Assembly (NCBI GenBank): GCA_049280815.1
Contig: JBAPQW010000041.1
Location: forward strand, 29,031-93,030
Reading direction: 5' to 3'
DNA: 64,000 bases
DNA from: Verrucomicrobiia bacterium
GTDB taxonomy: Bacteria > Verrucomicrobiota > Verrucomicrobiia > Limisphaerales > UBA11358
Below, in pieces: positions 6,277 to 37,302 of this stretch. The translations under genes were made by a program, and so were the position numbers. The notes below the pieces were generated by a model. That model did not search any database and was not told where the DNA came from. It saw only the letters and a program-made list of their open reading frames with translations. Every line of letters begins with the position of its first letter. Position 1 is the first letter of the stretch.

Positions 6277-6924
6277 TTAAGGGTTGGCGGCTGCGGGTGC
6301 CGCCGCTGGTTTGTTGAAATCGAACTGGACCTTGGGCGGCGTCTCGGCGCCGGCAGTGGCGGTGAAATATGGTTTCTCGTGGAAGCCAAACGCTGCGGCG
6401 TAAAACACTGCCGGAAACGATTTGATGGCGGTGTCATAAGCCTGAACCGCCGTGTTGAAATCCCGGCGCTCGACGCTGATGCGGTTTTCCGTGCCCTCCA
6501 GCTGTGCCTGCAGCTCGCGGAAGTTCTCCGTCGCCTTCAAATCCGGATACCGCTCCACCACGACCAGCAAGCGGGACAAGGCTGACGAAAGCTGGCCTTG
6601 GGCCGATTCAAACGCCGCCAGCTTGGCGGGATCGCTTGGGGCGGAATTGGGGTCAAGCTTCACCTGTCCCACCGAGGCCCGGGCTGCGGTGATTTCCGTG
6701 AGCGTGGATTTCTCGAAATTGGCCGCGCCGGAGACGGTGGCGACGAGGTTGGGGATGAGATCGGCCCGGCGTTGATAGACGTTTTGCACCTGTGCCCATT
6801 GGCTGTCCACGGCCTGTGACAGTTTGACGAGATGGTTGTAACTCGCGCCCGCCGCCAGGATAATAAACAACGCGAGCAGACCGAGCACGACCAGAACACC
6901 GAGAATAATGGCGATTTTTTTCAT
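6277..6924 (-). CDS. lemA: LemA family protein
   Basis: N-terminal TM helix followed by YNHLVKLSQAVDSQWAQVQNVYQRRADLIPNLV, the canonical LemA signature. Confidence 0.9.
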   Translation of the reverse strand: MKKIAIILGVLVVLGLLALFIILAAGASYNHLVKLSQAVDSQWAQVQNVYQRRADLIPNLVATVSGAANFEKSTLTEITAARASVGQVKLDPNSAPSDPAKLAAFESAQGQLSSALSRLLVVVERYPDLKATENFRELQAQLEGTENRISVERRDFNTAVQAYDTAIKSFPAVFYAAAFGFHEKPYFTATAGAETPPKVQFDFNKPAAAPAAANP

Positions 6925-7179
6925 AGTGACCGTCCCACTTTAACTTTCTTCTGACGGCTCACAATTACAAAATTTGCCGTTGTCCGTAATCACGTGCGTT
7001 CCCACTTCCAGCGCGTCGGGTCGGAATCAGATGATCCACTTGAAGCGGCGAGCAGCGATCGATCATAGCTCACGGTGCAACCGTGGGTTTTCAACCGCAA
7101 ACCGTCCAAGCCCCAGAAAGGTGCGAAAGAAGCGTTTGGCCTCCGGCGCGAACACGGCAACCCGTTTTTAAAAACAGCC

Positions 7180-8910
7180 CTAGTTTCTCAACCGGAAGAA
7201 CAGGGAACCGGTGGATTTGCTGAGCGTCACACTATTTGTCCCGCCGCGGCTGTTCACCGGCCCGGTGTAATCGCCCCAGTTGGTCGTCGTCAAATCAGCG
7301 TTGGTTTGCAGGACAAATCCCGCCGCGGAAGTCGGCCACGACACGACGACGTTGTCCAACACCGTGGGGTTGTCCGGCGGGTCGGCGAGCATGAGGAACA
7401 GGGTTGGCGGAGCGGAGGGCGATCCGGAACTGGTCAACACCGGATTGAAGGATACGGAATTGGATCCCGCCACCCCATCAATCATGTAGGTTCCCGTGAA
7501 ATCAAACGGCTGGTTGCCGAACTGTGAAGCGCAAACCAGGATGTTGCTTTGCTGGGTGGCGATGCCGTCGGCTGACGTGCCATCCGGCCACCAGGCGTTG
7601 CCGGAACCGCACGTGATGATTTCATTTACCAATTGAGTCGCCGGACCGTTGGTAACGTAAGTGTTCTGGCCGTTGGGACCGTAAATAATTCCCAGATAAA
7701 CGGGACTGGCGCTGCCGGTGTTCAAACCCGAGTACGCGTAAGGCACGGGCGAGTAGGTCCAATCCAGCGTGTTGCTGGGATCCGTCGAGTTCATAATGAA
7801 CGACAACTGCGCGATGGAGATAAGATTCGTGCCACCCTTGATATCCATACCAAACGTCAGCCGGTTGCCCAGTTCCTGGGCGAACGCCGGGCCAAAAGCG
7901 GTGCCGGGATCGGCGACTCCCATCCACGACGGGAAACTGGTCGCCAGATTGTTGGTTACCGAAATCGCATTCGTTATTTGCTGATAGAAGGTCGGCGACG
8001 ACGGATCGCCAGACGAGGAAAATCCGTTGAGGATGGCGGTGACGGCATTGGAAGCCCAGGCGTTCCAACTGGGTGAACCCCACCGGTTCGGTGCCAGGGC
8101 GGGAAAGACCGAGATGCTGATGCCTCCGGTTCCCAAGATCGGGCCGGCACTGGGCGCCACTGGATTGAGCGTTACGGAATTGGATCCCGACACCCCGTCA
8201 ATTGTGTAGGTTCCGGTGAAATCAAAGGGCTGGTCGCTAATCTGCGTAGCGGCGAGCACCAGGTTGCTTTGCTGGCTGGCAATGTCCCCAGACGTGTCAT
8301 ACACCGCCCAGGCATTGCCGGAGCCACGACCCACGAGCTCATTGACCAGTTGCGTCGCCGGGCCGCTGGTGACGTAGGTATTGGTGCCGCCGGGACCGTA
8401 GATGATGCCGACATAGGATTGACTATAGTTGTAGGAGCCCTCCGCGAAGGCAAAATCGAGCGTATTGCTCGGGTCGGTGGAATGCGCGCTGAAGGCCAAT
8501 TGCGAAATGGAGATCAGGTTGGTCCCGCCTTTGATGTCGATGCCGAACTGGAGCCGGTTGCCCAACTCCTGGGAAAAGCTGGCGCCGAAAACATTACCCG
8601 GATCGGCCAGGCCGTTCCACGACGGAAAACCGGTCACGAGGTCATTCGTTATTGAAATCACCCCAGGCGCCCATTGGTAATAGCTGGGTGACGACGGGTC
8701 GCCATACGACGAATAGCCATTGGCGATGGCGGTGGTGGCGTTGGAGACCCAGGCGTTCCAATTGGGCGAACCATAGACATTGGGTGCCAGGGCGGGAACG
8801 ACCGAGATGGTGATTCCCTGGGCCTGCACCGGGGAGAGGGAAGGTGTCGCAAGCACGGTCAATAAAATGCCGCCAACAATCAAACGACGGGCTGAAGTCA
8901 TCGGTAACAT
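7180..8910 (-). CDS. secreted protein P1: two tandem ~245-aa repeats of an unrecognised domain plus a FFRL-type C-terminal domain
   Basis: Signal peptide ending VQAQG. The internal duplication runs ITISVVPALAPNVYGSPNWNAW... and ISISVFPALAPNRWGSPSWNAW.... The C-terminus is VVVSWPTSAAGFVLQTNADLTTTNW...SLFFRLRN. Confidence 0.8.
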   Translation of the reverse strand: MLPMTSARRLIVGGILLTVLATPSLSPVQAQGITISVVPALAPNVYGSPNWNAWVSNATTAIANGYSSYGDPSSPSYYQWAPGVISITNDLVTGFPSWNGLADPGNVFGASFSQELGNRLQFGIDIKGGTNLISISQLAFSAHSTDPSNTLDFAFAEGSYNYSQSYVGIIYGPGGTNTYVTSGPATQLVNELVGRGSGNAWAVYDTSGDIASQQSNLVLAATQISDQPFDFTGTYTIDGVSGSNSVTLNPVAPSAGPILGTGGISISVFPALAPNRWGSPSWNAWASNAVTAILNGFSSSGDPSSPTFYQQITNAISVTNNLATSFPSWMGVADPGTAFGPAFAQELGNRLTFGMDIKGGTNLISIAQLSFIMNSTDPSNTLDWTYSPVPYAYSGLNTGSASPVYLGIIYGPNGQNTYVTNGPATQLVNEIITCGSGNAWWPDGTSADGIATQQSNILVCASQFGNQPFDFTGTYMIDGVAGSNSVSFNPVLTSSGSPSAPPTLFLMLADPPDNPTVLDNVVVSWPTSAAGFVLQTNADLTTTNWGDYTGPVNSRGGTNSVTLSKSTGSLFFRLRN

Positions 8911-8919
8911 CGTGCAAGA

Positions 8920-9012
8920 TATTTAACAGAAGCGGGCAAAAACGTAATGAATTAGGGACATATTGCGGGAATCGAGGGGCGAATTGCTCCCGGTGGGGGA
9001 CGGAGCGGGGCG
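8920..9012 (-). promoter_or_regulatory. conserved upstream element E1 (promoter/operator candidate)
   Basis: The plus-strand core TATTTAACAGAAGCGGGCAAAAACGTAATGAATTAGGGACATATTGCGGGAATCGAGGGG is shared with 12273-12366, 36042-36135 and 13274-13349. It lies directly 5' of the P1 start codon. Confidence 0.65.
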
Positions 9013-9090
9013 GTAAACTCCAGAGGCCAACTTCCCAAGGCCAAAGTGTTTTAGGATGGCGATCTTGTTTCAGCCTTTGGCCTTCAGTCT

Positions 9091-9633
9091 TCAGCCCCTT
9101 TGCGATGCCATCTGGATGAGCAAATCATTCAGTTCCTGCATGCGCGGCGGCTTGCCAACCACGGCGTCCACGGCCGAAACCGTTTCCCTGTCTTCTTTGA
9201 TCATCGAACCCGAGCCGGTCATCAGGATCACCGGCGTGCCCGGCGACTCCGCTTTGATGGCCCGGGCCACCTGATGGCCATCGATATCCGGCATGCCCAA
9301 ATCGGTGACGACGATTTCGTATGGCTGGTTATTCAGCCGGGCGGCGCGGAACAATTCCAGCCCCTGTTTTCCGCCGGAGGCAACCGTCACCCGATGCTCG
9401 AAATGCGTGAGGCAATCCTTCATAAACTCCCGAACCAGCGGGTCGTCATCAATGCAAAGGATGCACACGGAGCGCCTGGATCCGGCCTGAGGCGGGTCGC
9501 CCCGGCCGGCTTCCAAATCGATTTCCCGAACAGGAACATTGAATTGAACGCTGGTGTCGCTGCCAGGAGCACTTTCAATCTCGATCGAGCCGTCGTGGCG
9601 CTGGGCCGTGCCAAAGAGGGAAGATCCATTCAT
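9091..9633 (-). CDS. single-domain response-regulator receiver with a vestigial histidine-kinase ATPase C-terminus at its N-terminus
   Basis: The REC residues are intact (CIDDD, VVTDLGMPDIDG, ILMTGSG, VVGKPP). N-terminal residues GSIEIESAPGSDTSVQFNVPV match the end of HATPase_c (G-x-I-x-v-x-S-x-x-G-x-G-T-x-F-x-x-x-lP). Confidence 0.8.
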   Translation of the reverse strand: MNGSSLFGTAQRHDGSIEIESAPGSDTSVQFNVPVREIDLEAGRGDPPQAGSRRSVCILCIDDDPLVREFMKDCLTHFEHRVTVASGGKQGLELFRAARLNNQPYEIVVTDLGMPDIDGHQVARAIKAESPGTPVILMTGSGSMIKEDRETVSAVDAVVGKPPRMQELNDLLIQMASQRG

Positions 9634-9680
9634 AGTATTGTTAAAGAATAGGGTTTGGTTGGTTCAATCTGACGGTTGTT

Positions 9681-12266
9681 TTAGGGGAGAGTGGCGCCGC
9701 GATAAAAACGGCTGGAATATTTTCCGGCGTTCGTATCGAGCAACGATAACAAGCCATTCACGTCGGCGACATTCGTGCTGATGGCCGTCCAGTGGATCAT
9801 GTCCGTTGAGGCCTGGAGCACGTAAGTCTGGCCGGGCGTCCCCGTCAGGCTGGCCGTCACGCACCCGGCTTGCGGCGGGGTGATGCAAATTTTGCAGGCC
9901 ACCGCGGCGGGGGCTGGATGGTTGACGACTTCAGTCAAACCATTGGTGCTGTTGTTAAAATTGCCGGCCGCATCCGCGTATTCCGCCGTGATGGTGAAAC
10001 TGCCGGCGCCGAGGGCCGAGCCGGACACGGTGGCACTCGCTTGACCGCCGGCGAGGGAAACCGGGCTGCCCAGATTCGTGCCGTTGTTCTTGAATTGCAC
10101 CGTGCCGGTCGGGGCGGCAGTGCTGGGAGACACCGGGTTCACCGTGGCCGTTAAGGTGATGTTCTGGTTGGTGAGCGCCGGGTTAAGCCCGGAAACCACG
10201 CCAACCGCGGTTCCCGCTTTCGTCACGGTGAGGGTGCCGTTCACGAAAACAAAACTGTAATTCACCGCACTCAGCGAGCCGAGGGCGGTCGTAATCGGAT
10301 AAGGACCACCCGCTACCGGGCTGCCGGCGATCGCCGTGGTGGTCAGGCCGGGATTGCCGGTGACGCCGCTGGTCGCGAGGGTCTCGCCACCGACCAAGCC
10401 GGAGTAACTGGCCGTCAAGGCCGGATTGGCCGCGCCAAAGGGACGAGACAAGCTGTCCGCCGTCACCGTCAGTGTGGCTTTGGCGATATTAGCGGTGGCG
10501 GTGGCAGTCGTGGAGGCCGGCGCGTAGTTGCCTGCATCGGTACCGGAGAGGGTGATGCCGCTCACGCTCACCGTCTTGCCGTTGGCCGCGATTTTATCCG
10601 CAAACGACGCGGCCGCATAGCTTTCACTGAGAACATCACCCGCCAGCCGGTTGTCCGAAAGCGTCACGGTGGCAGCGGTCGTACCATCATAAATCTTGTT
10701 CACGCCCACGGCGGTCACGGTCAGGCTGCGGGCAGTAATGCTGGCCGTGGCGATGGGCTGGGTCAGCTTGTAATTGGCGGCACTCGCGCCGGCGATCGTC
10801 AATCCGGAAACCGTCACGGTCTTGCCCGGGCCGACATTCTTGTTTGCGAATACGCCCTTGGCGCCGCTGGGGCTCAAAGTCATCGTGTCCCCGGCGATGA
10901 CCCCGACCAGCGTCGCGCCGCTGACGTTGAGGGTTGCGGTCGTCTTGGCGTCATAAACCTTGTTGCCGGCCGTGAGGCCCGAAACCGTCAGCGTAGCCGC
11001 CGTGATGTTGGCCGTGGTTGAAGCCGTGGTGGCCGCGAGCAGGTAGTTGCCGGAATCGATGCCCGAAATGGTGAGGCCCTTCACGTTCACTAGCTTGCCA
11101 TTGCCCACAGTCTTGTTGGTAAAAGACGCGGTCGCATAGCTCACGGTGAGGACATCGCCCGACACCCGATTGTCCGTGAACGTTACGGTCGCGTTGGTCG
11201 TTCCGTCGTAAGCCTTGTTCACGCCCTTGGCCGTCACGGTCAGGCTGCGCCTGGTGATGCTGGCCGTGGACGCGGGCTGAGTCAGGTTGTAATTGCCGGC
11301 GCTGGTGCCGGTGATCGTCAACCCGGAAACCGTCACGGTCTTGCCCGTGCCGATGTTCTTGTCGGCGAAGGTGCCTTTGGCACCGCTGACGCCCAAGGCC
11401 ACCGTGTCCCCGGCGAGAACCCCAACCAGAGCCGCGCCGTTGGTCTTGAGGGTCGCGGTGGTCTTGGCGTCGTAAACCTTGTTGCTGGCCGTAATGCCCC
11501 AAACCGTCAGCGTGGCCTTGTTGATCGTCTGTGACAGGGCGCCGGAAGTGCTGCCGGTGAAATTGGTGTTGCCGCCGTAAACCGCGGCGATGGAATGGAC
11601 CGTGGTCGCGGCGGAAATCTTGTTGGTGCTGAAGGAGGCCTGTCCCGATCCATTCAATGTTCCTGAACCCAGGATGGTGCTTCCATCCTTGAAGGTCACC
11701 GTCCCGGAAGGCATCCCGGTGGCGGGAGCGACGGGACTGACCTTTGCGGTGAAGGTCACGGATTGGCCGTACACCAGCGGGTTGATTGACGAGGTGAGGG
11801 TGACGGTGGTCTTGCCCTGGCTGACGGTGAAAACGCTGCTCGTGGCACCCTTCAGGCCGCTGGCGCTGGCCAACAACGCATTCCCGACACCGGCCTGGAT
11901 GATGTCCAGATTGGTGAACGTGGCCTTGCCGCTGACGTCGGTGTTCATGCTGGTGGTTCCCATCAGTCCGGCACCCTTGTTCAATGCCAGTAAAATCGTC
12001 GCACCGCTTTGCGGCACATTGGTTCCGTTTTGGGCCTTGAGCTGCACCACGACGCCGGTCATCTTTGCTCCAACTGTCGTCGTCACCGGTTGCGCCGCGA
12101 ATGCCAGTTTGTAGGCTGCCGATGGGGCGCCGGAAACCGTCATGGCCGTGCTGACGGTCGCCAGCAAGGCACATTCAAAGAACCGCATCCATGACAGTTT
12201 CATAAGCTGTTTCCGCTCAACCCCAAAAACTTCGCGCTGGGTCATCCGACTGATTGATTGATTCAT
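9681..12266 (-). CDS. secreted surface protein P2: Ig-like (Big) domains, MBG/YDG repeats and a FYR-type C-terminal domain
   Basis: Repeated motifs KVYDAKTTATL, NKAYDGTTNATVT and GNYNLTQP are typical of MBG-domain adhesin-like proteins. The signal peptide starts at the second Met (MKLSWMRFF, ATG 12203), which may be the true start. Confidence 0.85.
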   Translation of the reverse strand: MNQSISRMTQREVFGVERKQLMKLSWMRFFECALLATVSTAMTVSGAPSAAYKLAFAAQPVTTTVGAKMTGVVVQLKAQNGTNVPQSGATILLALNKGAGLMGTTSMNTDVSGKATFTNLDIIQAGVGNALLASASGLKGATSSVFTVSQGKTTVTLTSSINPLVYGQSVTFTAKVSPVAPATGMPSGTVTFKDGSTILGSGTLNGSGQASFSTNKISAATTVHSIAAVYGGNTNFTGSTSGALSQTINKATLTVWGITASNKVYDAKTTATLKTNGAALVGVLAGDTVALGVSGAKGTFADKNIGTGKTVTVSGLTITGTSAGNYNLTQPASTASITRRSLTVTAKGVNKAYDGTTNATVTFTDNRVSGDVLTVSYATASFTNKTVGNGKLVNVKGLTISGIDSGNYLLAATTASTTANITAATLTVSGLTAGNKVYDAKTTATLNVSGATLVGVIAGDTMTLSPSGAKGVFANKNVGPGKTVTVSGLTIAGASAANYKLTQPIATASITARSLTVTAVGVNKIYDGTTAATVTLSDNRLAGDVLSESYAAASFADKIAANGKTVSVSGITLSGTDAGNYAPASTTATATANIAKATLTVTADSLSRPFGAANPALTASYSGLVGGETLATSGVTGNPGLTTTAIAGSPVAGGPYPITTALGSLSAVNYSFVFVNGTLTVTKAGTAVGVVSGLNPALTNQNITLTATVNPVSPSTAAPTGTVQFKNNGTNLGSPVSLAGGQASATVSGSALGAGSFTITAEYADAAGNFNNSTNGLTEVVNHPAPAAVACKICITPPQAGCVTASLTGTPGQTYVLQASTDMIHWTAISTNVADVNGLLSLLDTNAGKYSSRFYRGATLP

Positions 12267-12272
12267 GCAAGC

Positions 12273-12366
12273 TATTTAACAGAAGTGCGCAAAAACGTAA
12301 TGAATTAGGGACATATTGCAGGATTTGAGGGGTGGATTGCGTCGGTTGAGGGACGGAGCGAGGCGG
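12273..12366 (-). promoter_or_regulatory. conserved upstream element E2
   Basis: Same core as E1, with few substitutions by eye. It ends 6 nt before the ATG at 12266. Confidence 0.65.
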
Positions 12367-12448
12367 CATGGATTAAAGGTAAAATTCCAAAGGCTAAAGT
12401 GTTTTCAATGTTCAGCAATTTATTCTTACCTACAGCCTTCACTCTTCT

Positions 12449-12958
12449 TTATGCCGGCTTGGCCATCCGCAGGAGCAGGTCGTTCAGTTCCTGGATGCAC
12501 GGCGGTTTGCCGACGACGATGTCCACCGCCGACGCCATGTTTCCGCCTTCCTTCATCATGGTGCCCCCTCCCGTCATCATGATGATGGGTGTGTTGGGGG
12601 ATTCGGTCTTGATCGTCCGGGCCACCTGGTAACCATCCATATCCGGCATGCCCAAATCGGTTATGACCGCATCGTAAGGCTCGCTTTTCAGCATGGCGGT
12701 GATGAACAATTCCACCCCGCGCCTTCCGCCGGAGGCAACCTTTACCCGATGCTCATAGTGCGCGAGACAATCTTTCATGATTTCCAGGATCTGCTCGTCG
12801 TCATCGATGCACAGGATGTGCAGGGACCGCTTCGGTGTGGCGGGAACCTGGGTTCCGCCTGCCGGGATGGTTTGCGGCCCAAGCCGGGAAAGCTCCCGCG
12901 GATCCGGCAGAGTATCCCGCAGCAGCTCCGAATAGACGAATACATGAGAATTGTTCAT
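12449..12958 (-). CDS. single-domain response-regulator receiver, paralog of 9091-9633
   Basis: CIDDDEQILEIMKDCLAHYEHRVKVASGG and VITDLGMPDMDGYQVARTIK align along the whole REC domain with 9091-9633. Both proteins start MN-x-S. Confidence 0.8.
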   Translation of the reverse strand: MNNSHVFVYSELLRDTLPDPRELSRLGPQTIPAGGTQVPATPKRSLHILCIDDDEQILEIMKDCLAHYEHRVKVASGGRRGVELFITAMLKSEPYDAVITDLGMPDMDGYQVARTIKTESPNTPIIMMTGGGTMMKEGGNMASAVDIVVGKPPCIQELNDLLLRMAKPA

Positions 12959-12994
12959 ACAATCAGAGGTTTTGTTGATTTGATACCAGAGTGG

Positions 12995-13201
12995 TCAGGG
13001 GGTAATACCCCGATGGAAATGATTGGAATGGTTCTTCGCGACCGGTTCACCAAACGGGAACCGCCCTTTGGCGTCGGTCAGCCGGTTGTTGGTTTTGAAT
13101 GCCACCGCGAAAACGACGTTGCTTTGCGCCCGCGCGGACCGGGCTGGACGGCCAGCCGTCAACGGGCCATCGACAAAAAACCACATCCTCGACTTTTTCA
13201 T
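12995..13201 (-). pseudogene. collapsed surface-protein cassette (N-terminus P3-like, last codons P2-like)
   Basis: MKKSRMWFF...AQSNVVFAVAFKTNNR parallels the P3 N-terminus MKKSWMWLV...AQNNVVVYAAEYNQSTNR. The C-terminal FHRGITP* parallels P2 FYRGATLP*. The signal-peptide-like region contains D and R residues. A good SD (AAAGGAG) precedes the ATG. Confidence 0.5.
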
Positions 13202-13273
13202 CGCTTGCTCCTTTAAATCCCCCGACAGTTCTCAACAGGTTGTCCATCCAACTGACTTGCTCAACTGTAAGTT

Positions 13274-13349
13274 TGTTTAACACAAACTGACAAAAAACTA
13301 ATAAATAAGGGACAAGTTGGGGGATTAGCGGGGTGAATTGCGCCCGGGG
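13274..13349 (-). promoter_or_regulatory. conserved upstream element E4 (most diverged copy)
   Basis: TGTTTAACACAAACTGACAAAAAACTAATAAATAAGGGACAAGTTGGGGGATTAGCGGGGTGAATTGCGCC aligns with E1-E3. Confidence 0.5.
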
Positions 13350-13567
13350 AGGGATGGAATTACATCGTGCGAGACGAATTCTTTCCGCCGCCCGCCGCGA
13401 GAATCTGAACGCCCTGGACGCGTCCCATTCGACGTCAGCCTTCAGGCGGTTTGGCGCCTCTGGGGCAACAAAAGGGGCGCCCTCAATCACAGTAACACGA
13501 ATGCCACGAGCAGCTATCAGTAACTGGAATTCACTCCAGCCTTGTATTTCAGGCGGCTTGCGGGATA

Positions 13568-14611
13568 ATGACTGGCGAACACCTTTCACCTTCACCTGCC
13601 ATGAGCGCCAAATCCGCCAAACCCAAGGAAACGCCCGAGGGCCGCTGGCTCTCCTACCGGCCCGAAATCAAGGTTCTCGATTGCACCATCCGCGACGGCG
13701 GCCTCATGAACAACCACCATTTCGACGACCAGATCGTCAAGGTGGTCTATGACACCTGCGTCGCCGCCGGCGTGGATTACATGGAGCTGGGTTACAAGTC
13801 GTCGCGCAAGGGCATCAAACTGGGCGAACATGGCTGCTGGAAATATTGCGTCGAAGACGACCTCCGCCGCGTCGTCGGCGAAAACAAAACAGATTTGAAG
13901 CTGTGCGTGATGGCCGACGCCGAACGCTGCGATTATCGCGAGGATATCCTGCCGAAAAAAGATTCGATCATCGACATGATCCGCGTGGCGACCTACATCA
14001 CCCAGATTCCTACCGCCCTGGACATGGTCAAGGACGCCCACGACAAGGGCTACGAAACAACAGTCAATTTGATGGCCGCCTCCGTCATCCCCGACCGCGA
14101 GCTGGACGAGGGGCTGGAAATGCTCGTCAAATCCGAGGCCAAGGCGATTTACCTGGTGGACAGTTTCGGGGCGTTTTACAGCGAGCAGATCCATGTGTTG
14201 GTGAAGAAATATCTTTCACATTGCAAACCCGCGGGCAAGGAGGTGGGCGTGCATATGCACAACAATCTGCAACTGGCCTACGCCAACACCATCGAAGGCA
14301 TCATCGAAGGCGCCAATTATCTCGACGCCACGATGGCCGGCCTGGGCCGGGGCGCAGGTAACTGCCCGATGGAACTGCTCATCGGTTTTCTGCGCAACCC
14401 AAAGTACGAACTCCGGCCCATCCTCGACTGCGTGCAGAACCACATCGAGCCGATGCGCGCGAAGTTGTTGTGGGGATACGACCTGCCCTACCTGTTGACG
14501 GGCCTGCGCAACCTGCATCCGCGCGCCGCCATCAAGTTCAAGGAAGCCGAACTGAAGGGCGAGAAGGGCGACATCCTGAAGTTCCACGACACCGTCACGG
14601 ACCAGGCTTGA
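13568..14611 (+). CDS. HMGL-like (DRE-TIM metallolyase / pyruvate carboxyltransferase-type) aldolase-domain protein
   Basis: LDCTIRDGG near the N-terminus and HMHNNLQLAYANT are metal-binding signatures of the HMGL-like family. An alternative start is ATG 13601 (MSAKSAK). Confidence 0.7.
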   Translation: MTGEHLSPSPAMSAKSAKPKETPEGRWLSYRPEIKVLDCTIRDGGLMNNHHFDDQIVKVVYDTCVAAGVDYMELGYKSSRKGIKLGEHGCWKYCVEDDLRRVVGENKTDLKLCVMADAERCDYREDILPKKDSIIDMIRVATYITQIPTALDMVKDAHDKGYETTVNLMAASVIPDRELDEGLEMLVKSEAKAIYLVDSFGAFYSEQIHVLVKKYLSHCKPAGKEVGVHMHNNLQLAYANTIEGIIEGANYLDATMAGLGRGAGNCPMELLIGFLRNPKYELRPILDCVQNHIEPMRAKLLWGYDLPYLLTGLRNLHPRAAIKFKEAELKGEKGDILKFHDTVTDQA

Positions 14612-31003: not shown

Positions 31004-31894
31004 TCAGGGTTTCGCGGGGGAGGGCGTGGGAGCTGGCGCGGGAATTAGACCGGGTGCCATCACCATTGGCATGTCGGTTGGTTTCACCCGGCGCACCCCG
31101 CCGAGGACCGTGATATTGCCCTGGTCATCGGTTTGCAACCGTGGCCGAGTGGTGAAATAATCGTAATTTTCCTGCTCAACAAAGTCGCCGGCAGGATTGA
31201 CCACCGTGTAAGTGAAGACCCGCGCGCCGCTTTGATAAATCACGTGCAGATTGTTGAGGCGGTCCAGTTGCGCCTCCGGTTGGCTGAACGAAACCATCGG
31301 GCCAATGGCCCGGACCTTGAAGACTTGCCGTTCGGCATCGTCGCTTACCTGCACATACATCCGCAGTTGCGAATGAAGATAATTCGCCTGTTCCAGGGTG
31401 TATTTGCGGGCCTCGGGGGCGCCATTCGTTGCTCCGGCGGCGGCGGGAATGCCGAACGATTGCGACCACAATTTCGCCCCGTCAATCACTTCGAAGTTTT
31501 GGGGCGGACTGGGGATGTCCACGTTCCAATCCTTGATGTGCAGCGTGGCGACGATGCGATAACCGCCCTGCCGCGTCAGCTTGAAATAAGGCGCCACATC
31601 CACGGCCTTGGTGGCCATTTGCGACGAATCCAGATCAAACTCACCCTGCACCGGCGCGTCAGCATACTTGGTCACCACGTAATCATCCACCGCCGTCACG
31701 CTAAACGTAACCCAGTTCGGGTCGGCGCCCAGATGCAGCAGCTGGCCGGAACGGTTTGTAACCCGCACCTTCACCAGCAACGATTCACTGGGCAGAAATT
31801 GTGACTGATCCATCAGCAGCTCCACGGTGATCTGCGCGGACGCGCTAAACCAGGTCAACCACACCAGTCCAAAAATGGCCAATGAAAATTTCAT
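31004..31894 (-). CDS. secreted hypothetical protein
   Basis: Signal peptide MKFSLAIFGLVWLTWFSASAQ and a Pro-rich C-terminus. I recognise no family. It lies downstream of P3 on the same strand. Confidence 0.55.
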   Translation of the reverse strand: MKFSLAIFGLVWLTWFSASAQITVELLMDQSQFLPSESLLVKVRVTNRSGQLLHLGADPNWVTFSVTAVDDYVVTKYADAPVQGEFDLDSSQMATKAVDVAPYFKLTRQGGYRIVATLHIKDWNVDIPSPPQNFEVIDGAKLWSQSFGIPAAAGATNGAPEARKYTLEQANYLHSQLRMYVQVSDDAERQVFKVRAIGPMVSFSQPEAQLDRLNNLHVIYQSGARVFTYTVVNPAGDFVEQENYDYFTTRPRLQTDDQGNITVLGGVRRVKPTDMPMVMAPGLIPAPAPTPSPAKP

Positions 31895-32058: not shown

Positions 32059-35000
32059 TTATTGCACCTGCACCCGGAAGAAACAATGTGGAGTGCCGCT
32101 GACACTGTTCGTCACAGAAACCATCGTGCCGGTCCCCGCCACAGACCCACCGACCGGGGCCCAGGTGGCAACCGGGAGGTTGGTGGAACACTCGAGTTGA
32201 TAGGTCTGATTTGAAAACGTCTGCCAGCTGACGACGAATTGTTGTGTTCCATTGACGTTGACTGTGGCACCGGTCAGTTGCGGGGCCGCGATCACCTTAA
32301 GGCTTCCACTCACATATTGAATCGTGTAGTTGGCAGCTCCCGCACCGCTGGCGGTGATCGGATAATTACCGGCGCCACTCGCTGTGGTTGCCGTCGTATT
32401 CAATACCACTGGGGGCGATAATATGCTGGTGTCGTCGCCACTGGCAAAACCGTTGTAACTGGCGGTCAGCGGCGGATTGGGCATCCCGTAAATCTTGGTC
32501 TTGGCGTCGGCTGCCACTGTCAATATCGCCTTGCCGATCACCAAGGTGTTGGTGGCGCTGCCCTGGTAATTGACATCATTGATCGTGCCGATGACCGTGT
32601 AGCTGCCGGCGCTGACGGGAACCGTGGCTGAACCATTGTACGTAAAGCTCACCGCCAAACCGTTCGGGGTTGTCGTCGCCGCCGCCGGCTTAAAGGTGCC
32701 ATCATAGGTCTGGCTGAGACCGCTGAGCGAAATCGAGCTGGCAGCCTTGTTGATCACCAGCATGTTGGTGGCGCTGCCCTGGTAATTGGCGTCATTGATG
32801 GTGCCGGTCACGGTGTAGCTGCCGGCATTGGTGGGAACCGTGGCCGAACCGTTGTAGGTAAATGTCACCGCCAACCCGCCTGGAGTTGTTGTCGCCGTTG
32901 CTGGCTCGGCTGAACCATTGTAAGTCTGGCTCAAGCTGCCCAGCACGATTGAACCCGAAGCCTTGATGATAACGCCCGCGGTGCTGGACACAATACTGAC
33001 AGTGTAATTATTGCCGCTGTTGCCGTCGTTGATCGCGTAAGAGCTGATACTCAGGGTCTTGCCTGCGCCCGCGTCCGGCGTGTCGTAAGTCTCGGCCAGG
33101 CCGCTCACGGTGTCGCTGCCCTGCAGACCGCTGGTTGTCGGAGTCGCCGAGGCAATGGTCGACCCGTCATAAATCTTGGTGTTCGCCACCGCCGTAATGG
33201 TCAAAGTTGCTGCTGTAATGTCCGCCGCCAGGCCCGTTGGCTGAGTCAGTGTGTAATTGCCGGCATCCGTCCCGGTGATGGCATATCCGCCCGCGGAAAC
33301 CGGAATGCCCGTCCCCACGTTCGGATTGGCAAACGCGGCGCTCACGTCGCCCGTGAACAGGCTCACATCATCACCACTCACCCCTCCGTTCAAAGTTGCC
33401 GTGCCGTTCAATTGCGCATTCGTTGTTCCATCATACACTTTGGCGGCTGCCACCACGCCACTCACGGTCAATCCGGCGGTGGCGACGTTCGCCGTCACGT
33501 TCGTTGGATCAGCCAGGGTGTAATTGGCCGCCGCCGCGCCGCCCAGCGCCAGCCCCGACACCGTCACTGGCTTGTTCGTGTTGACATTTTTGTCCGCAAA
33601 ATATGCCACAGCATTGCTGGTGACCAGGGCCACGTCGTCTCCGTTCAGCACGCCCGCCAAACCGGCATTGCTCGCATCCAGCGTGGCATTCGTCGTGCCG
33701 TCATACACCTTGTCCAAGGCCAGCAGATTCGTTACGGTCAGCGCCAGCGCGCTCACCGTGATGTTCACGGAACCGCTCGCACCGGCCAGCGTGTAGTTGC
33801 CCGCCGCCGCGCCGCCCAACGTCAGCGCACCAAAGGACGTGATTGCCTCTGACCCGGCATTCGCGCTGGCCAGCGTGCCGCTGCCCGAGGCCACCGTCAC
33901 GTTGTCGCTGCCAATCTTGTTCGCCACCGACAAAATTTCCGCCGCCACCGTCGTTGTTCCGTCATAAGACCGGCTGCCCGTCAAATTTACCGGCAGTGCG
34001 TTGATCGTCAGCGCCGTCGCATTCCCGGCCGCCTGGACGAACGTGTAGTTGCCATTGTTGGCCGTCAATCCGGCACCATTGATCGCATAGCTACCCACGC
34101 CGCTGGACGAAGTCGCCGCCGGCGTGAACGTCAGCGTGCCCGTCGTCGCATTGCCTTGGTTGTCCGTTCCTAAAAATCCAGTCACCGAACCGCTCACACC
34201 AGGTACCACCGATCCGTAAGTCGTGCTCGCAGGGTTCGCAGTGTACATCAGTGTTGCCGCGTTAATGACGAGCGAGTTGGTGGCACTGCCCTGGTAATTG
34301 GCGTCATTGATGGTGCCGACCACGGTGTAGCTGCCGGCGCTGGTGGGAACGGTAACCGAACCGTTGTAGGTAAATGTCACTGCCAAACCGCTCGGAGTCG
34401 TGGTCGCCGTCGCCGGCTCGGCAGAACCACTGTAGGTCTGGCTGAGGCTGCCCAACACGATTGAGCTGGAAGCCTTGCTGATGACGAGCGAGTTGGTGGC
34501 GCTGCCCTGGTAATTGGCGTCATTGATGGTGCCAACCACCGTGTAGCTGCCGGCGCTGGTGGGAACAGTCGCCGAACCGTTGTAGGTAAATGTCACTGCC
34601 AAACCGCTCGGAGTCGTGGTCGCCGTCGCCGGCTCGGCAGAACCACTGTAGGTCTGGCTGAGGCTGCCCAACACGATTGAGCTGGAAGCTTTGCTGATGA
34701 CGAGCGAGTTGGTGGCGCTGCCCTGGTAATTGGCGTCATTGATGGTGCCAACCACGGTGTAGCTGCCGGCGCTGGTGGGAACGGTAACCGAACCGTTGTA
34801 GGTAAATGTCACTGCCAGCCCGCTTGGGATCGTGGTCGCCGTCGCTGCTTTGGCCGTGCCATCATACGTCTGGCTCAGACTTCCAAGGGTTACGGTGGCG
34901 CTACCTTTGCTGACCGTCAAAGTCGCGTTGTTGGTCACGGTTCCCATGGCCCCGCTCACGATGACGCCATAGGTCGCCGCGTCGCTGGTGCCCACGTTGG

Positions 35001-35976
35001 TCAAGGACAGGCTGCTGTTCGTCTGGCCACTGACAATCGAACCGTTCCTCAGCCAGACATAGCCATATGGTGGCGTGCCTGAGGCTACCGTGCTGAACAC
35101 GACAGTGTTTCCCGCCACGGTCGTCTGGTTTGATGGTCCCGTCGCACTCACCGGCACGGTGAGATTGGTGATCGCCTGGGGGACATTGCCCGAGAAGTTG
35201 AAGTTGGAGGGGAAATTGGTGCCGGCACCGACCAGGTTGATGGTGATTTGGTGAGTGCTGCCATTCGCATTGGTTCCACCGGTCACGAAACTGTTCAGGT
35301 CGAGGGTCGCCAATTCGGGGATCGGATTGGTGACAGATCCCAGTTTGATGAAGACCCCGTACGTGTACTGGCTTCCATTCTCAAGCGTCAGGTAGGGGTA
35401 GCCGACGGCCTCTCCCATCCACGTTGCCGCGCCGTTTGTGGTATTGACCCGATAGATGTCAGTGTTCGTGCTCGTATTGCTGACGTAGAGATTGCCGTCC
35501 TGTGCAAAGCGGATGTTCTGGCCGGTAGTGCCCAGGTTGCGGGGGGTGCCATAACTTCCGATCAAAGTTGCCGTCCCATTGGTGGTATTGATCGTGTACA
35601 GCTTGCTCGACGTGGCTCCGAACAGCACTCCGTCACTTTGGCGGAAGGCCAACGATTCGATGCCGCTCACACTAAAATTAGCGACCAGGGCGACAGCGCC
35701 GTTGGTTTTATTGAACGCCACCAGGGCCGTGGTGTTGGAGATGCCATACAACATCCCGTTTGTGGGGCAGTAAGCAATGTCGTTCATCACCGTACTGCCA
35801 TACGAGGAAATCTTGGTGAAGGTGCCGTTCAACAGGTTAATCGTGCCGAAACGATTGGTAGACTGGTTGTACTCGGCGGCATAAACGACGACATTGTTCT
35901 GCGCCCAAGCGGGCATGGCGAAGCTGCCGGCTCCCAGCACGGCGCCGATTACCAACCACATCCATGACTTTTTCAT
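32059..35976 (-). CDS. giant secreted surface protein P3: beta-propeller-like N-domain, Ig I-set-like domain, many MBG/YDG repeats and a FFRV-type C-terminal domain
   Basis: Signal peptide MKKSWMWLVIGAVLGAGSFAMPAWA (ATG 35976; the track ORF starts at GTG 36036). Repeated motifs are LSQTY.G.A.PATATTTPSGLAVTFTYNGS and KVYDGTTNA. The C-terminus is FVVSWQTFSNQTYQLECSTNLPVATW...CFFRVQVQ. Confidence 0.85.
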   Translation of the reverse strand: MKKSWMWLVIGAVLGAGSFAMPAWAQNNVVVYAAEYNQSTNRFGTINLLNGTFTKISSYGSTVMNDIAYCPTNGMLYGISNTTALVAFNKTNGAVALVANFSVSGIESLAFRQSDGVLFGATSSKLYTINTTNGTATLIGSYGTPRNLGTTGQNIRFAQDGNLYVSNTSTNTDIYRVNTTNGAATWMGEAVGYPYLTLENGSQYTYGVFIKLGSVTNPIPELATLDLNSFVTGGTNANGSTHQITINLVGAGTNFPSNFNFSGNVPQAITNLTVPVSATGPSNQTTVAGNTVVFSTVASGTPPYGYVWLRNGSIVSGQTNSSLSLTNVGTSDAATYGVIVSGAMGTVTNNATLTVSKGSATVTLGSLSQTYDGTAKAATATTIPSGLAVTFTYNGSVTVPTSAGSYTVVGTINDANYQGSATNSLVISKASSSIVLGSLSQTYSGSAEPATATTTPSGLAVTFTYNGSATVPTSAGSYTVVGTINDANYQGSATNSLVISKASSSIVLGSLSQTYSGSAEPATATTTPSGLAVTFTYNGSVTVPTSAGSYTVVGTINDANYQGSATNSLVINAATLMYTANPASTTYGSVVPGVSGSVTGFLGTDNQGNATTGTLTFTPAATSSSGVGSYAINGAGLTANNGNYTFVQAAGNATALTINALPVNLTGSRSYDGTTTVAAEILSVANKIGSDNVTVASGSGTLASANAGSEAITSFGALTLGGAAAGNYTLAGASGSVNITVSALALTVTNLLALDKVYDGTTNATLDASNAGLAGVLNGDDVALVTSNAVAYFADKNVNTNKPVTVSGLALGGAAAANYTLADPTNVTANVATAGLTVSGVVAAAKVYDGTTNAQLNGTATLNGGVSGDDVSLFTGDVSAAFANPNVGTGIPVSAGGYAITGTDAGNYTLTQPTGLAADITAATLTITAVANTKIYDGSTIASATPTTSGLQGSDTVSGLAETYDTPDAGAGKTLSISSYAINDGNSGNNYTVSIVSSTAGVIIKASGSIVLGSLSQTYNGSAEPATATTTPGGLAVTFTYNGSATVPTNAGSYTVTGTINDANYQGSATNMLVINKAASSISLSGLSQTYDGTFKPAAATTTPNGLAVSFTYNGSATVPVSAGSYTVIGTINDVNYQGSATNTLVIGKAILTVAADAKTKIYGMPNPPLTASYNGFASGDDTSILSPPVVLNTTATTASGAGNYPITASGAGAANYTIQYVSGSLKVIAAPQLTGATVNVNGTQQFVVSWQTFSNQTYQLECSTNLPVATWAPVGGSVAGTGTMVSVTNSVSGTPHCFFRVQVQ
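34262..34918 (-). repeat. three tandem 219-bp near-identical coding repeats (MBG modules) inside P3
   Basis: Units 34262-34480 and 34481-34699 differ at only a handful of positions by eye. The third unit, 34700-34918, is slightly more diverged. Two further diverged units lie at 32536-32970. Confidence 0.85.
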
Positions 35977-36041
35977 ATCTTTTTCCTGTTTGACCCAAGT
36001 TTTCGCACCCGGTTTCCAATCCAATTGATTCTTCACCTCGT

Positions 36042-36135
36042 TATTTAACAGAAACGGCGCAAAACGTAATGGATTAGGGACACAATGCGGGATTTGAGGG
36101 GTGAATCGCGCCTGGTAAGGGGCGGAATTCGGAGG
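36042..36135 (-). promoter_or_regulatory. conserved upstream element E3
   Basis: TATTTAACAGAAACGGCGCAAAACGTAATGGATTAGGGACACAATGCGGGATTTGAGGGGTGAATCGCGCC lies between the LytTR regulator stop and P3. Confidence 0.65.
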
Positions 36136-36181
36136 AAACGGAGGGAAAACAAGGCCGGACGGCCCAGGTCATCTCACCGAC

Positions 36182-36949
36182 TTAGGGCATGACGCCCAGT
36201 TGCCGGAGCTGTTCCCGATAACCCCGGGTGAGCGTTACGCGGGTGCCATTGCGGAGCGAAACCATGTATTCGCCGTGAAACATGGGATGCAATTCCTTGA
36301 CCGACTCGATGTTCACGATGGTCGAGCGGCTGATGCGGACAAAACGATCCGGGGGAAGTTTTTCCTCCAGAGCGGTCATGGTTTCGCGCAGCATATGCGT
36401 TTCACTGCCAACGTACAGCTTCACATAATTGTCCGCCGCCTCCACCAAATCGATATCCGTCAGGCGCAGGAACACAATGCGCCCGTTGGACTTGACGGCC
36501 AGCCGCTCCGGATATTTTGAACCGGCCTTCAGATCGTTCAGCAAACCGTCCAGTTTCTGCTGGATTTCACCGGTCTGATTGCTCTGAATTTGTTGCCGGG
36601 CCCGTTGCACCGCCGATCGCAAGCGCGCCAGCTGGCAGGGTTTCATCAGGTAATCCAGGGCGTGCGCTTCAAAAGCCTTCAACGCAAAATCATCGCGCCC
36701 CGTCACAAAGATGATGACCGGCATCCGCGGAAGCTTGATCTGGGCGACCACTTCGAAGCCGTCCAGTTCGGGCATTTGCACGTCGAGAAATACCAGGTCG
36801 GGCGCCAGCTCATTGATGGATTCGACGGCTTGGCGGCCGCTGGCGGCCGTCCCGATGATCTCGATGTCCGGCTCGGAATGGTGGAGCATGTCCCGCAATA
36901 CCGCCAACCCGGTCGCCTGGTCATCCACGAGTAAAGCACGAATTTTCAT
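36182..36949 (-). CDS. LytR/AlgR-family response regulator (REC + LytTR DNA-binding domain)
   Basis: REC: MKIRALLVDDQ and DLVFLDVQMPELDG. LytTR: FLRLTDIDLVEAADNYVKLYVG...FVRISRSTIVNI. ATG 36949 is preferred over TTG 36970. Confidence 0.85.
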   Translation of the reverse strand: MKIRALLVDDQATGLAVLRDMLHHSEPDIEIIGTAASGRQAVESINELAPDLVFLDVQMPELDGFEVVAQIKLPRMPVIIFVTGRDDFALKAFEAHALDYLMKPCQLARLRSAVQRARQQIQSNQTGEIQQKLDGLLNDLKAGSKYPERLAVKSNGRIVFLRLTDIDLVEAADNYVKLYVGSETHMLRETMTALEEKLPPDRFVRISRSTIVNIESVKELHPMFHGEYMVSLRNGTRVTLTRGYREQLRQLGVMP

Positions 36950-37302
36950 TTTGCTGTTCGATGCTGCCAATCCGGCAATTTATTTTCGTTCAAAGTGTCA
37001 AATCCTGACAATGTGTTTAATACTGAAAAACATGAGCAGTTGCCATGCCTCGGCCGCCTCTGATTGGCGGTGATGTCTTGAATTTGGATTCAATTATTTC
37101 AGAACCCCGGAAACCCCATAAAAACCAAGACAACCAACTGAAAGTCTAAAAAATATCCAATAAAGGCCCGTGGCATTTTCTTTAATTTGGACACGGTAGT
37201 TCGGTTCCCTTGACAGTGTCCCCGGCTGACCTGGTCAAGTTGGGTGAGGCAATTTAAATTCACGGCCGCCTCTGCCGGCCAATAAACCGCTCGTCCGCCT
37301 CG

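Follow-up and report, generated by a model that had tools for sequence, protein, structure and literature searches.

A repeated promoter-like element ties three tandem secreted-protein and receiver units of a soil Verrucomicrobium to a candidate LytTR-type regulon

What places the same short DNA element ahead of different secreted-protein genes three times in a row? We studied this in a 64,000-nucleotide (nt) stretch of soil Verrucomicrobium DNA (contig JBAPQW010000041.1, positions 29,031 to 93,030; the window hereafter), in which an initial annotation had described three head-to-tail units on the minus strand, each built from a conserved 5' element, a gene for a secreted protein (the cargo) and an orphan receiver gene. 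It had suggested a surface-protein diversification system of an undescribed type, left behind by cassette exchange. Our analysis favours a simpler account, to which we give a probability of about 0.62: three adjacent paralogous transcription units, each made of an element that we call E, an adhesin gene and a receiver (REC) gene, which belong to one LytTR-type regulon and have been duplicated and decayed, with no cassette system.

The repeated architecture was borne out by self-BLASTN of 6900-13700 against the window and by profile search. Flank similarity was strong, with E-values down to 3e-97 for the match of 8910-9475 to 12263-12830 (74% over 575 nt), which covers REC and the adjoining element. 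E2 with its 5' untranslated region (UTR) and signal peptide matched a distant site (12141-12357 with 35914-36126, 72.5% over 222 nt, E=4e-19), as did E4 with UTR and start (13179-13361 with 35954-36129, 69% over 183 nt, E=1e-13), and E1 matched E4 (77% over 83 nt, E=2e-11). An nhmmer profile placed the ~100-nt element three times in the array on the minus strand (8916-9023, 12269-12366 and 13272-13369), close to its first annotated positions. A search with the 24-nt core TGTCCCTWATTYATTASKTTTTTG, which occurs four times in the window against zero expected, also picked up E3, a further minus-strand copy at 36039-36138 that lies beyond the region first annotated. The matching first codons of units 1 and 2 (MKKSRMW and MKLSWMR) proved to be part of a homologous 5' UTR and signal peptide common to both units and to P3, the large gene that follows E3. 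The likeness of the last codons and stops of the cargoes and of the spacers ahead of REC also held, the spacer being a conserved REC leader, and the two REC genes are homologous, with 64% protein identity. In the array the features are as follows (R1 to R3 are direct repeats within E, and A4 is the alignment of E copies described below).

13272..13369, minus strand: E4, putative promoter element of unit 1 (nhmmer 81.5 bits; A4); R1 13348-13362, R2 13326-13341, R3 13305-13320, -10-like box TGTTAAACA 13274-13282 (A4)
12995..13201, minus strand: short open reading frame (ORF) of 68 aa, internally deleted remnant of a p350-type secreted protein that retains the signal peptide (Smith-Waterman against p350 of locus L006)
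12959..12994, minus strand: REC1 leader and translation-initiation region, the spacer of the initial annotation (homologous to the leader consensus CACGAATCAACAAAACCGGTTTTAAT-ATG)
12449..12958, minus strand: REC1, stand-alone receiver gene (Pfam Response_reg, 4.6e-19)
12269..12366, minus strand: E2, putative promoter element of P2-REC2 (nhmmer 87.5 bits; A4; match to CCCT-N17-CCCT-N17-CCCT); R1 12347-12361, R2 12325-12340, R3 12304-12319, -10-like box TGTTAAATA 12273-12281 (A4)
9681..12203, minus strand: P2, secreted Ig/YDG/MBG-repeat protein (Pfam YDG x4, Big_3_5 x2, MBG_2)
9634..9680, minus strand: REC2 leader (conserved REC leader)
9091..9633, minus strand: REC2, stand-alone receiver gene (Pfam Response_reg, 3.6e-19)
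8916..9023, minus strand: E1, putative promoter element of P1 (nhmmer 93.2 bits; A4); R1 8994-9008, R2 8972-8987, R3 8951-8966, -10-like box TGTTAAATA 8920-8928 (A4)
7180..8910, minus strand: P1, secreted protein with a ~230-aa internal duplication and a C-terminal domain (internal repeats D3, D5-D7)

The structure of E carries much of the argument. When one genome per species was scanned for the pattern, 22 loci came up, 21 of them true copies, and 19 of these came from Verrucomicrobiota or Limisphaerales metagenome-assembled genomes (MAGs) of peat, bog and soil. The remaining two (L007 and L020) sit in bins labelled 'uncultured Bifidobacteriaceae' and carry the element together with P2-like or LytTR-P3 genes; these contigs are probably mis-binned and Verrucomicrobial in origin. 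Twenty-five copies aligned ungapped (A4) with a mean column identity of 83%. Conservation sets in ~60 nt before GTCCCT and breaks off sharply after TGTTAAATA; from there on, the sequence varies with the gene that follows. Within E lie three direct repeats of ~16 nt (GGAATTCCGCCCCTCA, GCAATTCACCCCTCAA and GCAATGTGTCCCTAAT), the CCCT cores of which are exactly 21 nt apart (A4 columns 26-29, 47-50 and 68-71), and its autocorrelation peaks at lag 21 with 54% identity, a value that 42 of 5,000 shuffles equalled at any lag from 8 to 35 (p ~0.008). The repeats are followed by a conserved block and then by an extended -10-like box, TGnTAAATA (TGTTAAATA); R3 ends ~27 nt upstream of this box and a canonical -35 is absent. 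The sense strand is C-rich and G-poor. The most diverged copies (L107 and L111) have kept the three repeats and the TGTTAA box and changed the block between them, a pattern that reads as a phylogenetic footprint of those parts of E that would matter.

An element of ~100 nt that is highly conserved and stands ahead of genes could also be transcribed, be it as a riboswitch, as another structured 5' leader or as a small RNA from one strand or the other, and the 5' UTR below E is itself conserved among P3-, P2- and p350-type genes. Against this, RNAalifold gave just 4 pairs at -2.7 kcal/mol for the 25 copies of E and 0 pairs for 17 UTRs downstream of it, so that the small 5' hairpins spotted by eye in some UTRs found no support there. 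Rfam (gathering thresholds on the whole window, E<=5 on 6900-13700) returned only one tRNA, elsewhere. We rejected a structured cis-regulatory RNA or riboswitch because there was no conserved structure and no Rfam match. The strong C-richness of the sense strand, conservation that ends at a -10-like box rather than beginning after one, and the 10 nt that P1-type units leave between E and the start codon speak against RNA in any form, a reading we hold to be highly improbable.

The neighbourhood of E3 suggests a regulator. Three further features of the window are needed here.

36182..36970, minus strand: LytTR-family response regulator, REC plus LytTR DNA-binding domain (Pfam LytTR 3.7e-25, Response_reg 3.5e-23)
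36039..36138, minus strand: E3, between the LytTR regulator gene and P3 (nhmmer 99.1 bits); R1 36116-36130, R2 36094-36109, R3 36073-36088, TGTTAAATA 36042-36050 (A4)
32059..35976, minus strand: P3, large secreted protein of 1305 aa (Pfam DUF4394-like N-domain, Ig, MBG_3/YDG/MBG_2 repeats; C-terminal domain)

The regulator gene lies 44 nt upstream of E3. Orthologues that are 87-91% identical stand directly upstream of E-P3 in nine related loci (L001, L004, L005, L008, L010, L014, L016, L019 and L020), and an 80% orthologue in L107, found independently of E, shows the same LytTR-E-P3 order, so that the adjacency holds in the window plus 10 related loci, 11 in all. In L108, where the regulator is 74% identical and P3 has been lost, a lone R2 relic (GCGCAATCCACCCCTCAAT) abuts the regulator stop codon (L108:7763-7788). 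LytTR regulators recognise repeats of 9-11 nt with gaps of 11-13 nt (PMC4847170), and their sites have no common consensus and sit upstream of weak-core promoters (PMC4847170, PMC4227749). The three repeats of E, with their cores in exact 21-nt phase, agree with this repeat layout, and the genome encodes a LytTR regulator beside one of the putative targets. Because of the phased repeats, the LytTR adjacency, the L107/L111 footprint and the L108 relic, we consider E most likely to be an activator-dependent promoter controlled by the regulator at 36182-36970.

E resembles the promoters of the LytTR/AgrA/AlgR family (agr P2/P3, YpdB-yhjX, ComE and PlnC boxes) in its imperfect direct repeats of ~9-16 nt placed ~21 nt apart, and in the position of these repeats ahead of what would be a promoter that lacks a good -35 box. 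In such systems, as apparently at this locus, the regulator gene adjoins a target and the regulon is small and has secreted products. E differs from them in having three phased repeats instead of the usual two and in being C-rich, unlike any known box, and the setting differs too, with an uncultured Verrucomicrobium as host and an orphan regulator that has no LytS-type kinase beside it and whose binding to E is predicted.

Several observations weigh against this assignment. Most of the adjacency comes from loci that were chosen by the E pattern, which is an ascertainment bias; when regulator orthologues were looked up without this bias, E was downstream only of the 80% orthologue, and those at 74% and 71% had no E-P3 downstream. 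No E-like site precedes the regulator gene itself, and no further E-like or repeat motif was found in the window, the region upstream of the LytTR gene included. No cognate kinase gene lies beside the regulator. E has no recognisable -35 box, a simple sigma-70 scan misses it and a canonical sigma-70 and terminator scan gave nothing informative within it; the -10-like hexamer does not end in the canonical T. In most copies ATTCATTACGTTT, the stretch that separates R3 from the -10 box, is conserved as well as the repeats are, and two-site LytTR models leave it unexplained. Finally, a GCAAT-N17-CGTT arrangement within E could be an extracytoplasmic function (ECF)-type promoter.

These points leave some room for E as a shared promoter or operator that is read by another factor, an ECF-type sigma or a different regulator, with the LytTR adjacency incidental and the history of duplication and decay unchanged. 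The spacing of GCAAT-N17-CGTT, as read from A4, resembles that of ECF -35 and -10 boxes, the invariant block GTCCCTaATTCATTACGTTT goes beyond a simple two-repeat LytTR site, and the regulator orthologues without E-P3 fit as well. Yet the AAC core typical of an ECF -35 is absent, the putative CGTT '-10' block is not conserved in L107 and L111, where the repeats and TGTTAA are, and no sigma or anti-sigma gene lies beside any copy in the loci examined; the adjacency in 11 loci and the R2 relic that persists beside the LytTR stop codon of L108 despite the loss of P3 also speak against it. We judge another factor unlikely, and we kept the ECF-type reading as a minor rival only, owing to the loss of the CGTT block in L107 and L111. 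A sigma-54 reading of CTGTTAAATAACTTGCA was dropped, as there is no GG at -24 and TTGCA varies among copies.

If E is a LytTR-dependent promoter, it is one that has been reused. It precedes five gene types (P3, p350, P2, P1 and REC), and homology ends at the -10-like box. Similar upstream sequence thus stands before non-homologous genes, namely P1, REC and the P3/P2/p350 family. P1 orthologues are preceded by E in ten loci (L003, L011, L015, L017, L056, L058, L060, L105, L106 and L111); the ATG of P1 comes just 10 nt after the -10-like box of E1, and that of the orthologues likewise after ~10 nt. Promoter reuse was documented by Nijveen, Matus-Garcia and van Passel in 2012 (PMC3575422), whose 'putative mobile promoters' resemble E in that closely similar promoters stand before non-homologous genes within and across related genomes.

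That precedent raises the possibility that E is mobile but non-autonomous, a 'mobile promoter' or an element like a miniature inverted-repeat transposable element (MITE), which inserted before unrelated genes and owes its conservation to recent spread. The same ~100 nt before P1, REC and the P3 family, with homology that ends sharply at both edges, would suit this, as would a copy in L027 that, along with remnants, closely precedes an intact hybrid kinase gene. By contrast, we noted no terminal inverted repeats or target-site duplications and no transposase beside the copies, genomes hold only 1-4 copies, and orientation and distance to the gene are always alike. The orthologous copies of E3 are 85-90% identical in nine genomes, conservation at the level of coding sequence that points to long-term purifying selection. 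E had no match in plasmid or phage collections, and since the inverted-repeat search also showed nothing flanking the units, a MITE or other mobile element was rejected. Unlike the mobile promoters of PMC3575422, the copies of E are old, appear to be under purifying selection and to serve one regulon, and give no sign of ongoing mobility. We regard insertion of a mobile sequence as quite improbable, and return to E as a regulatory module of a LytTR-type regulon.

The cargoes had been called unrelated. This stands for P1, which had no BLASTP match to P2, P3 or p350, and fails for the others. The repeats of P2 are 33-39% identical to those of P3, and the C-terminal domain of P2 is 44% identical to that of p350 (BLASTP), a ~350-aa protein of related genomes that consists of the DUF4394-like N-terminal domain of P3 and a C-terminal domain; the N-domain of P3 is 53% identical to p350. 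These likenesses argue that P2, p350 and P3 are paralogues that share promoter, 5' UTR and signal peptide and differ by domain loss. The UTR and signal peptide of P3 are homologous to those of units 1 and 2. The mechanical ORF of P2 reaches 12266, the start first annotated, and this runs into the 5' UTR; the UTR and the ATG at 12203 (MKLSWMR) align with the E3 and E4 units, which makes 12203 the likelier start. The P2 orthologue in L105 is 77% identical.

In unit 1, which had seemed to hold essentially no cargo, the short ORF joins 39 aa from the N-terminus of p350 to 28 aa from its C-terminus; the protein is intact in relatives (L006, L009, L021, L036, L039 and L106). In Smith-Waterman alignment against the L006 protein the two parts scored 66 and 64, compared with 23.5 +/- 3.5 for shuffles, 0 of 500 of which reached them. 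The ORF is an internal-deletion pseudogene of p350; another, larger deletion is found in L018 and L105. The nearest relative of E4 is the E copy ahead of an intact p350 gene in L021 (84%).

P1 belongs to a narrow family, with 82 homologues, five of which carry an organism label and come from Verrucomicrobiota MAGs, the rest being unnamed metagenome proteins; the named ones are 'hypothetical'. It had no match in Pfam or NCBIfam. Its AlphaFold2 model shows tandem beta-sandwiches (pLDDT 71), and Foldseek against the PDB gave weak matches to multi-Ig adhesins (MSCRAMM and AgI/II, TM<0.3), with no function assigned. Internally, P1 and P2 carry duplicated domains that have diverged to 70-79% identity. 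We note that P1, P2, P3, p350 and an unrelated RCC1-repeat protein (L067:10577-12229) all end in a domain of ~70-90 aa (...W....V...........F(F/Y)R(L/V/G)..), seen by eye at 7180-7400, 9681-9950 and 32059-32300 of the window, with a BLASTP match for P2-p350 only; the C-terminus of P3 resembles P2 and p350 by eye and gave no separate BLASTP match. The domain belongs to no Pfam or NCBIfam family in P1, P2 or P3, and may be a clade-specific sorting or anchoring domain. P3, P2, p350 and P1 are most likely surface or adhesive proteins.

The receiver genes have a traceable source. A hybrid histidine kinase of 668 aa (L027:8438-10444) is matched over its residues 531-667 by REC1, with 69% identity, and over its residues 497-667 by residues 6-176 of REC2, with 63%. 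The kinase has HisKA, HATPase_c (410-527) and REC (549-661) domains, and the first ~31 aligned residues of REC2 correspond to the tail of HATPase_c (RHDGSIEIESAPGSDTSVQFNVPV); NCBIfam matches of REC2 likewise fall at the C-terminal ends of hybrid kinases. Because of the REC2 alignment to kinase residues 497-667, REC1 and REC2 are read as 3' fragments of a hybrid histidine kinase gene; some stand-alone REC genes still encode the tail of the ATPase domain. The parent kinase is intact in >20 related metagenome loci, and stands between PolX and ThiD genes in both loci with scanned neighbours (L028 and L030). Response_reg is the only Pfam domain of REC1 and REC2, and the receiver pocket (D62/D63/D64, D111, T139 and K161 in REC2 numbering) is invariant in 8 sequences, as is typical of stand-alone receivers, which keep the acidic pocket with its phospho-acceptor Asp, the Thr and the Lys but have no output domain. 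On a tree, REC1 groups with the first REC of L105, and REC1 and REC2 fall in separate clades, each with orthologues elsewhere; together with their 64% identity, this places the duplication far back. The leader consensus CACGAATCAACAAAACCGGTTTTAAT-ATG precedes REC in >20 loci, whatever is upstream, and follows the -10-like box of E directly in L012, L013 and L022. In these traits REC1 and REC2 resemble CheY-type single-domain response-regulator sinks and connectors, which are stand-alone receivers with an intact acidic pocket, Thr and Lys; as pathway outputs they would be of the same kind, a role that is purely conjectural here, and their origin as a 3' fragment of a hybrid kinase with a HATPase tail is unusual.

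Other arrangements of these genes were seen in passing. At L027:7898-8413 the intact kinase is directly preceded by an E copy and by what is left of a P2-type signal peptide (MKLLWIRF...) and of the final ~40 REC codons, an arrangement that looks like a decayed E-P2-REC unit beside the parent gene. Two REC genes occur in tandem at L066:531-1290 and, 3.7 kb apart with unrelated genes between them, at L067:5389-10384, where the RCC1 protein with the C-terminal domain lies downstream. A perfect 10-bp inverted repeat with a 28-nt loop (9037-9046/9075-9084) lies just past the REC2 stop and is partly conserved after REC1; hairpin folds 3' of the REC genes and the LytTR gene were not significant against shuffles (z -0.8 to -1.9; -1.9 and -0.8 for this inverted repeat).

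How the units came to differ is best seen in relatives. The closest one found, L105 (P1 85% identical, ~80-91% nucleotide identity), has the same three-unit array as the window in the order HMGL, E, remnant, REC1', E, P2', REC2', E, P1', LemA, and only indels differ around an otherwise fixed array. These indels are ~1.7 kb of extra sequence between the HMGL gene and E (L105:2924-4538; DUF1294, a CusF-like protein and a 118-aa ORF) and a 175-aa lipoprotein-like ORF between REC1' and E2' (L105:5759-6286). More distant relatives have p350-REC-E-P1 (L003, L011, L056, L058, L060 and L106), E-p350-REC (L006, L036 and L039) or E-REC. In the MAG MFD01476.bin.1.197, four E units lie apart and each has different neighbours (L009, L018 and L111 on one 1-Mb contig, L010 on another), which argues that each E with its gene belongs to a small regulon in its own right.

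Some ten lineages have lost the adhesin that stood between E and REC, each by way of a junction of its own: those of L013/L022, L048, L050, L052, L055, L057, L033, L063, L018, L105 and the window all differ. In L013/L022 the fusion comes right after the -10 box, in L048 the UTR is joined to a point just before the old stop codon, and in L063 the UTR is joined to the REC start; L050, L052 and L055 have further distinct junctions, and L057, L033, L018, L105 and the window hold varied remnants of signal peptide and C-terminus. Junctions that differ in this way suggest that the deletions were independent and untidy and did not arise by site-specific excision. In L059 the deletion took most of E, of which the final 18 nt (GCCGGCTTCTGTTAAATA) survive, joined to the stop codon of REC (L059:10050-10095); given this deletion, P1 is there probably co-transcribed with p350-REC.

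These comparisons bear on the question of cassette exchange, in which the E and REC flanks would serve as sites between which cargo is swapped by recombination. The initial observation of conserved flanks around variable cargo survives: in relatives the interval from E to REC is occupied by p350, by P2, by remnants or by nothing at all, and E1 and E2, which are mutually nearest at 85%, are compatible with gene conversion, of which they give a weak hint. The mechanism drawn from it does not, since junctions differ in every lineage with no fixed crossover point, and the array is syntenic and fixed in L105, the very observation that the initial annotation had named as telling against its proposal. 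REC1 and REC2 are old, distinct paralogue lineages, every unit has its own putative promoter, the E units of another genome are scattered among different neighbours, and the cargoes other than P1 are paralogues differing by domain loss, not unrelated inserts. A diversification system of an undescribed type is likewise not what L105 and the lineage-specific junctions indicate. We consider cassette exchange largely refuted and give it next to no credence.

No machinery for such exchange came to light. As first annotated, no recombinase, integrase or reverse transcriptase is encoded among the window ORFs examined by Pfam scans, and no recombinase or reverse transcriptase was present in the related loci whose gene tables were read, apart from unrelated transposase genes in L106 and L109; the Pfam content of the flanking and intervening ORFs (LemA, TPM, HMGL, ACS/GNAT, AraC, Nuo51, HypF/D/E, GH57 and others) includes no recombinase, and neither integrase nor invertase was found beside E in the related loci. 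An integron cassette array is superficially similar, with its head-to-tail units, conserved boundaries and variable content. In contrast to integrons, there is no IntI integrase in the window ORFs scanned or adjacent to the array in L105 and L106, no attI or attC (an inverted-repeat search and RNAalifold on E gave no attC-like folds or inverted repeats at unit boundaries), the units carry putative promoters, the junctions are heterogeneous and the array is fixed in a relative. We rejected an integron for lack of an integrase among those ORFs and because the shared element is direct, unstructured and promoter-like; site-specific exchange, a shufflon or an invertible promoter because junctions are not identical across independent rearrangements; and a diversity-generating retroelement because the scanned window ORFs include no reverse transcriptase and the repeats of P1 and P2 are diverged domain duplications.

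A parallel is offered by tandem paralogous adhesin operons with pseudogene remnants. There, as here, head-to-tail paralogues share promoter, 5' UTR and signal peptide; in the present case the C-terminal domains of P2 and p350 also match by BLASTP, divergence or deletion has affected the middle domains, and independent deletions recur by lineage. The difference is that each unit here adds a kinase-derived stand-alone receiver gene, and that we found no evidence of phase or antigenic variation. The locus is, in sum of its parts, a fresh example of known things: a LytTR-type phased-repeat promoter, reused, on decaying tandem paralogous adhesin-receiver operons.

We propose the following course of events for a LytTR-type regulon. 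Each unit opens with a copy of E, the ~100-nt module read here as cis-regulatory DNA. The orphan regulator encoded at 36182-36970 may bind the phased repeats on one face of the helix and activate transcription, which would start a few bases downstream of TGTTAAATA. The predicted outputs are the secreted beta-sandwich, beta-propeller and Ig-repeat proteins P3, P2, p350 and P1. REC1 and REC2 would be co-transcribed behind the adhesin genes on a bicistronic transcript, and their products might, more speculatively, act back on the phosphorelay, either as a connector or as a sink for phosphate. An ancestral E-adhesin-REC operon could have been duplicated, its copies diverging by domain loss in a series from P3 (complete) to P2 (without the N-domain) and p350 (without the repeats). 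Three units would then have come to lie in tandem in this lineage, and an internal deletion would have destroyed the adhesin of unit 1, so that E4 may now drive REC1 through a 68-codon remnant.

To our knowledge, almost nothing is known of transcriptional regulation in this Verrucomicrobial group. If the proposal is right, it supplies an uncultured lineage of peat and soil with a cis-regulatory motif, a candidate regulator and a regulon of four promoters whose products are secreted and probably adhesive. The locus is also a clear natural example of promoter reuse, of receiver genes born from the tail of a hybrid kinase and of recurrent loss of one gene from a two-gene operon. The locus reveals no new mechanism of recombination or diversification. 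A broader version, which we put forward tentatively and think doubtful as a whole, is that a Limisphaerales clade reuses E as a portable LytTR-dependent promoter module before unrelated secreted-protein genes and a 3' kinase fragment, that the receiver of a sensor thereby becomes an output of its pathway with feedback, and that the array is where the regulon grew by duplication, the adhesin being repeatedly discarded and E-REC kept.

Two minor observations concern the surroundings of the units. Downstream of P3 the window encodes a secreted protein of 296 aa (31004-31894) that matches no family and occupies the same position in L008 and L107; it may be part of the P3 transcription unit. Exact-protein look-ups returned two short Logan contigs of the same organism from one sample (SRR27973166), L103 and L104, whose ends fall within E2 and E1; the repeated element thus interrupts short-read assembly at precisely the borders between units.

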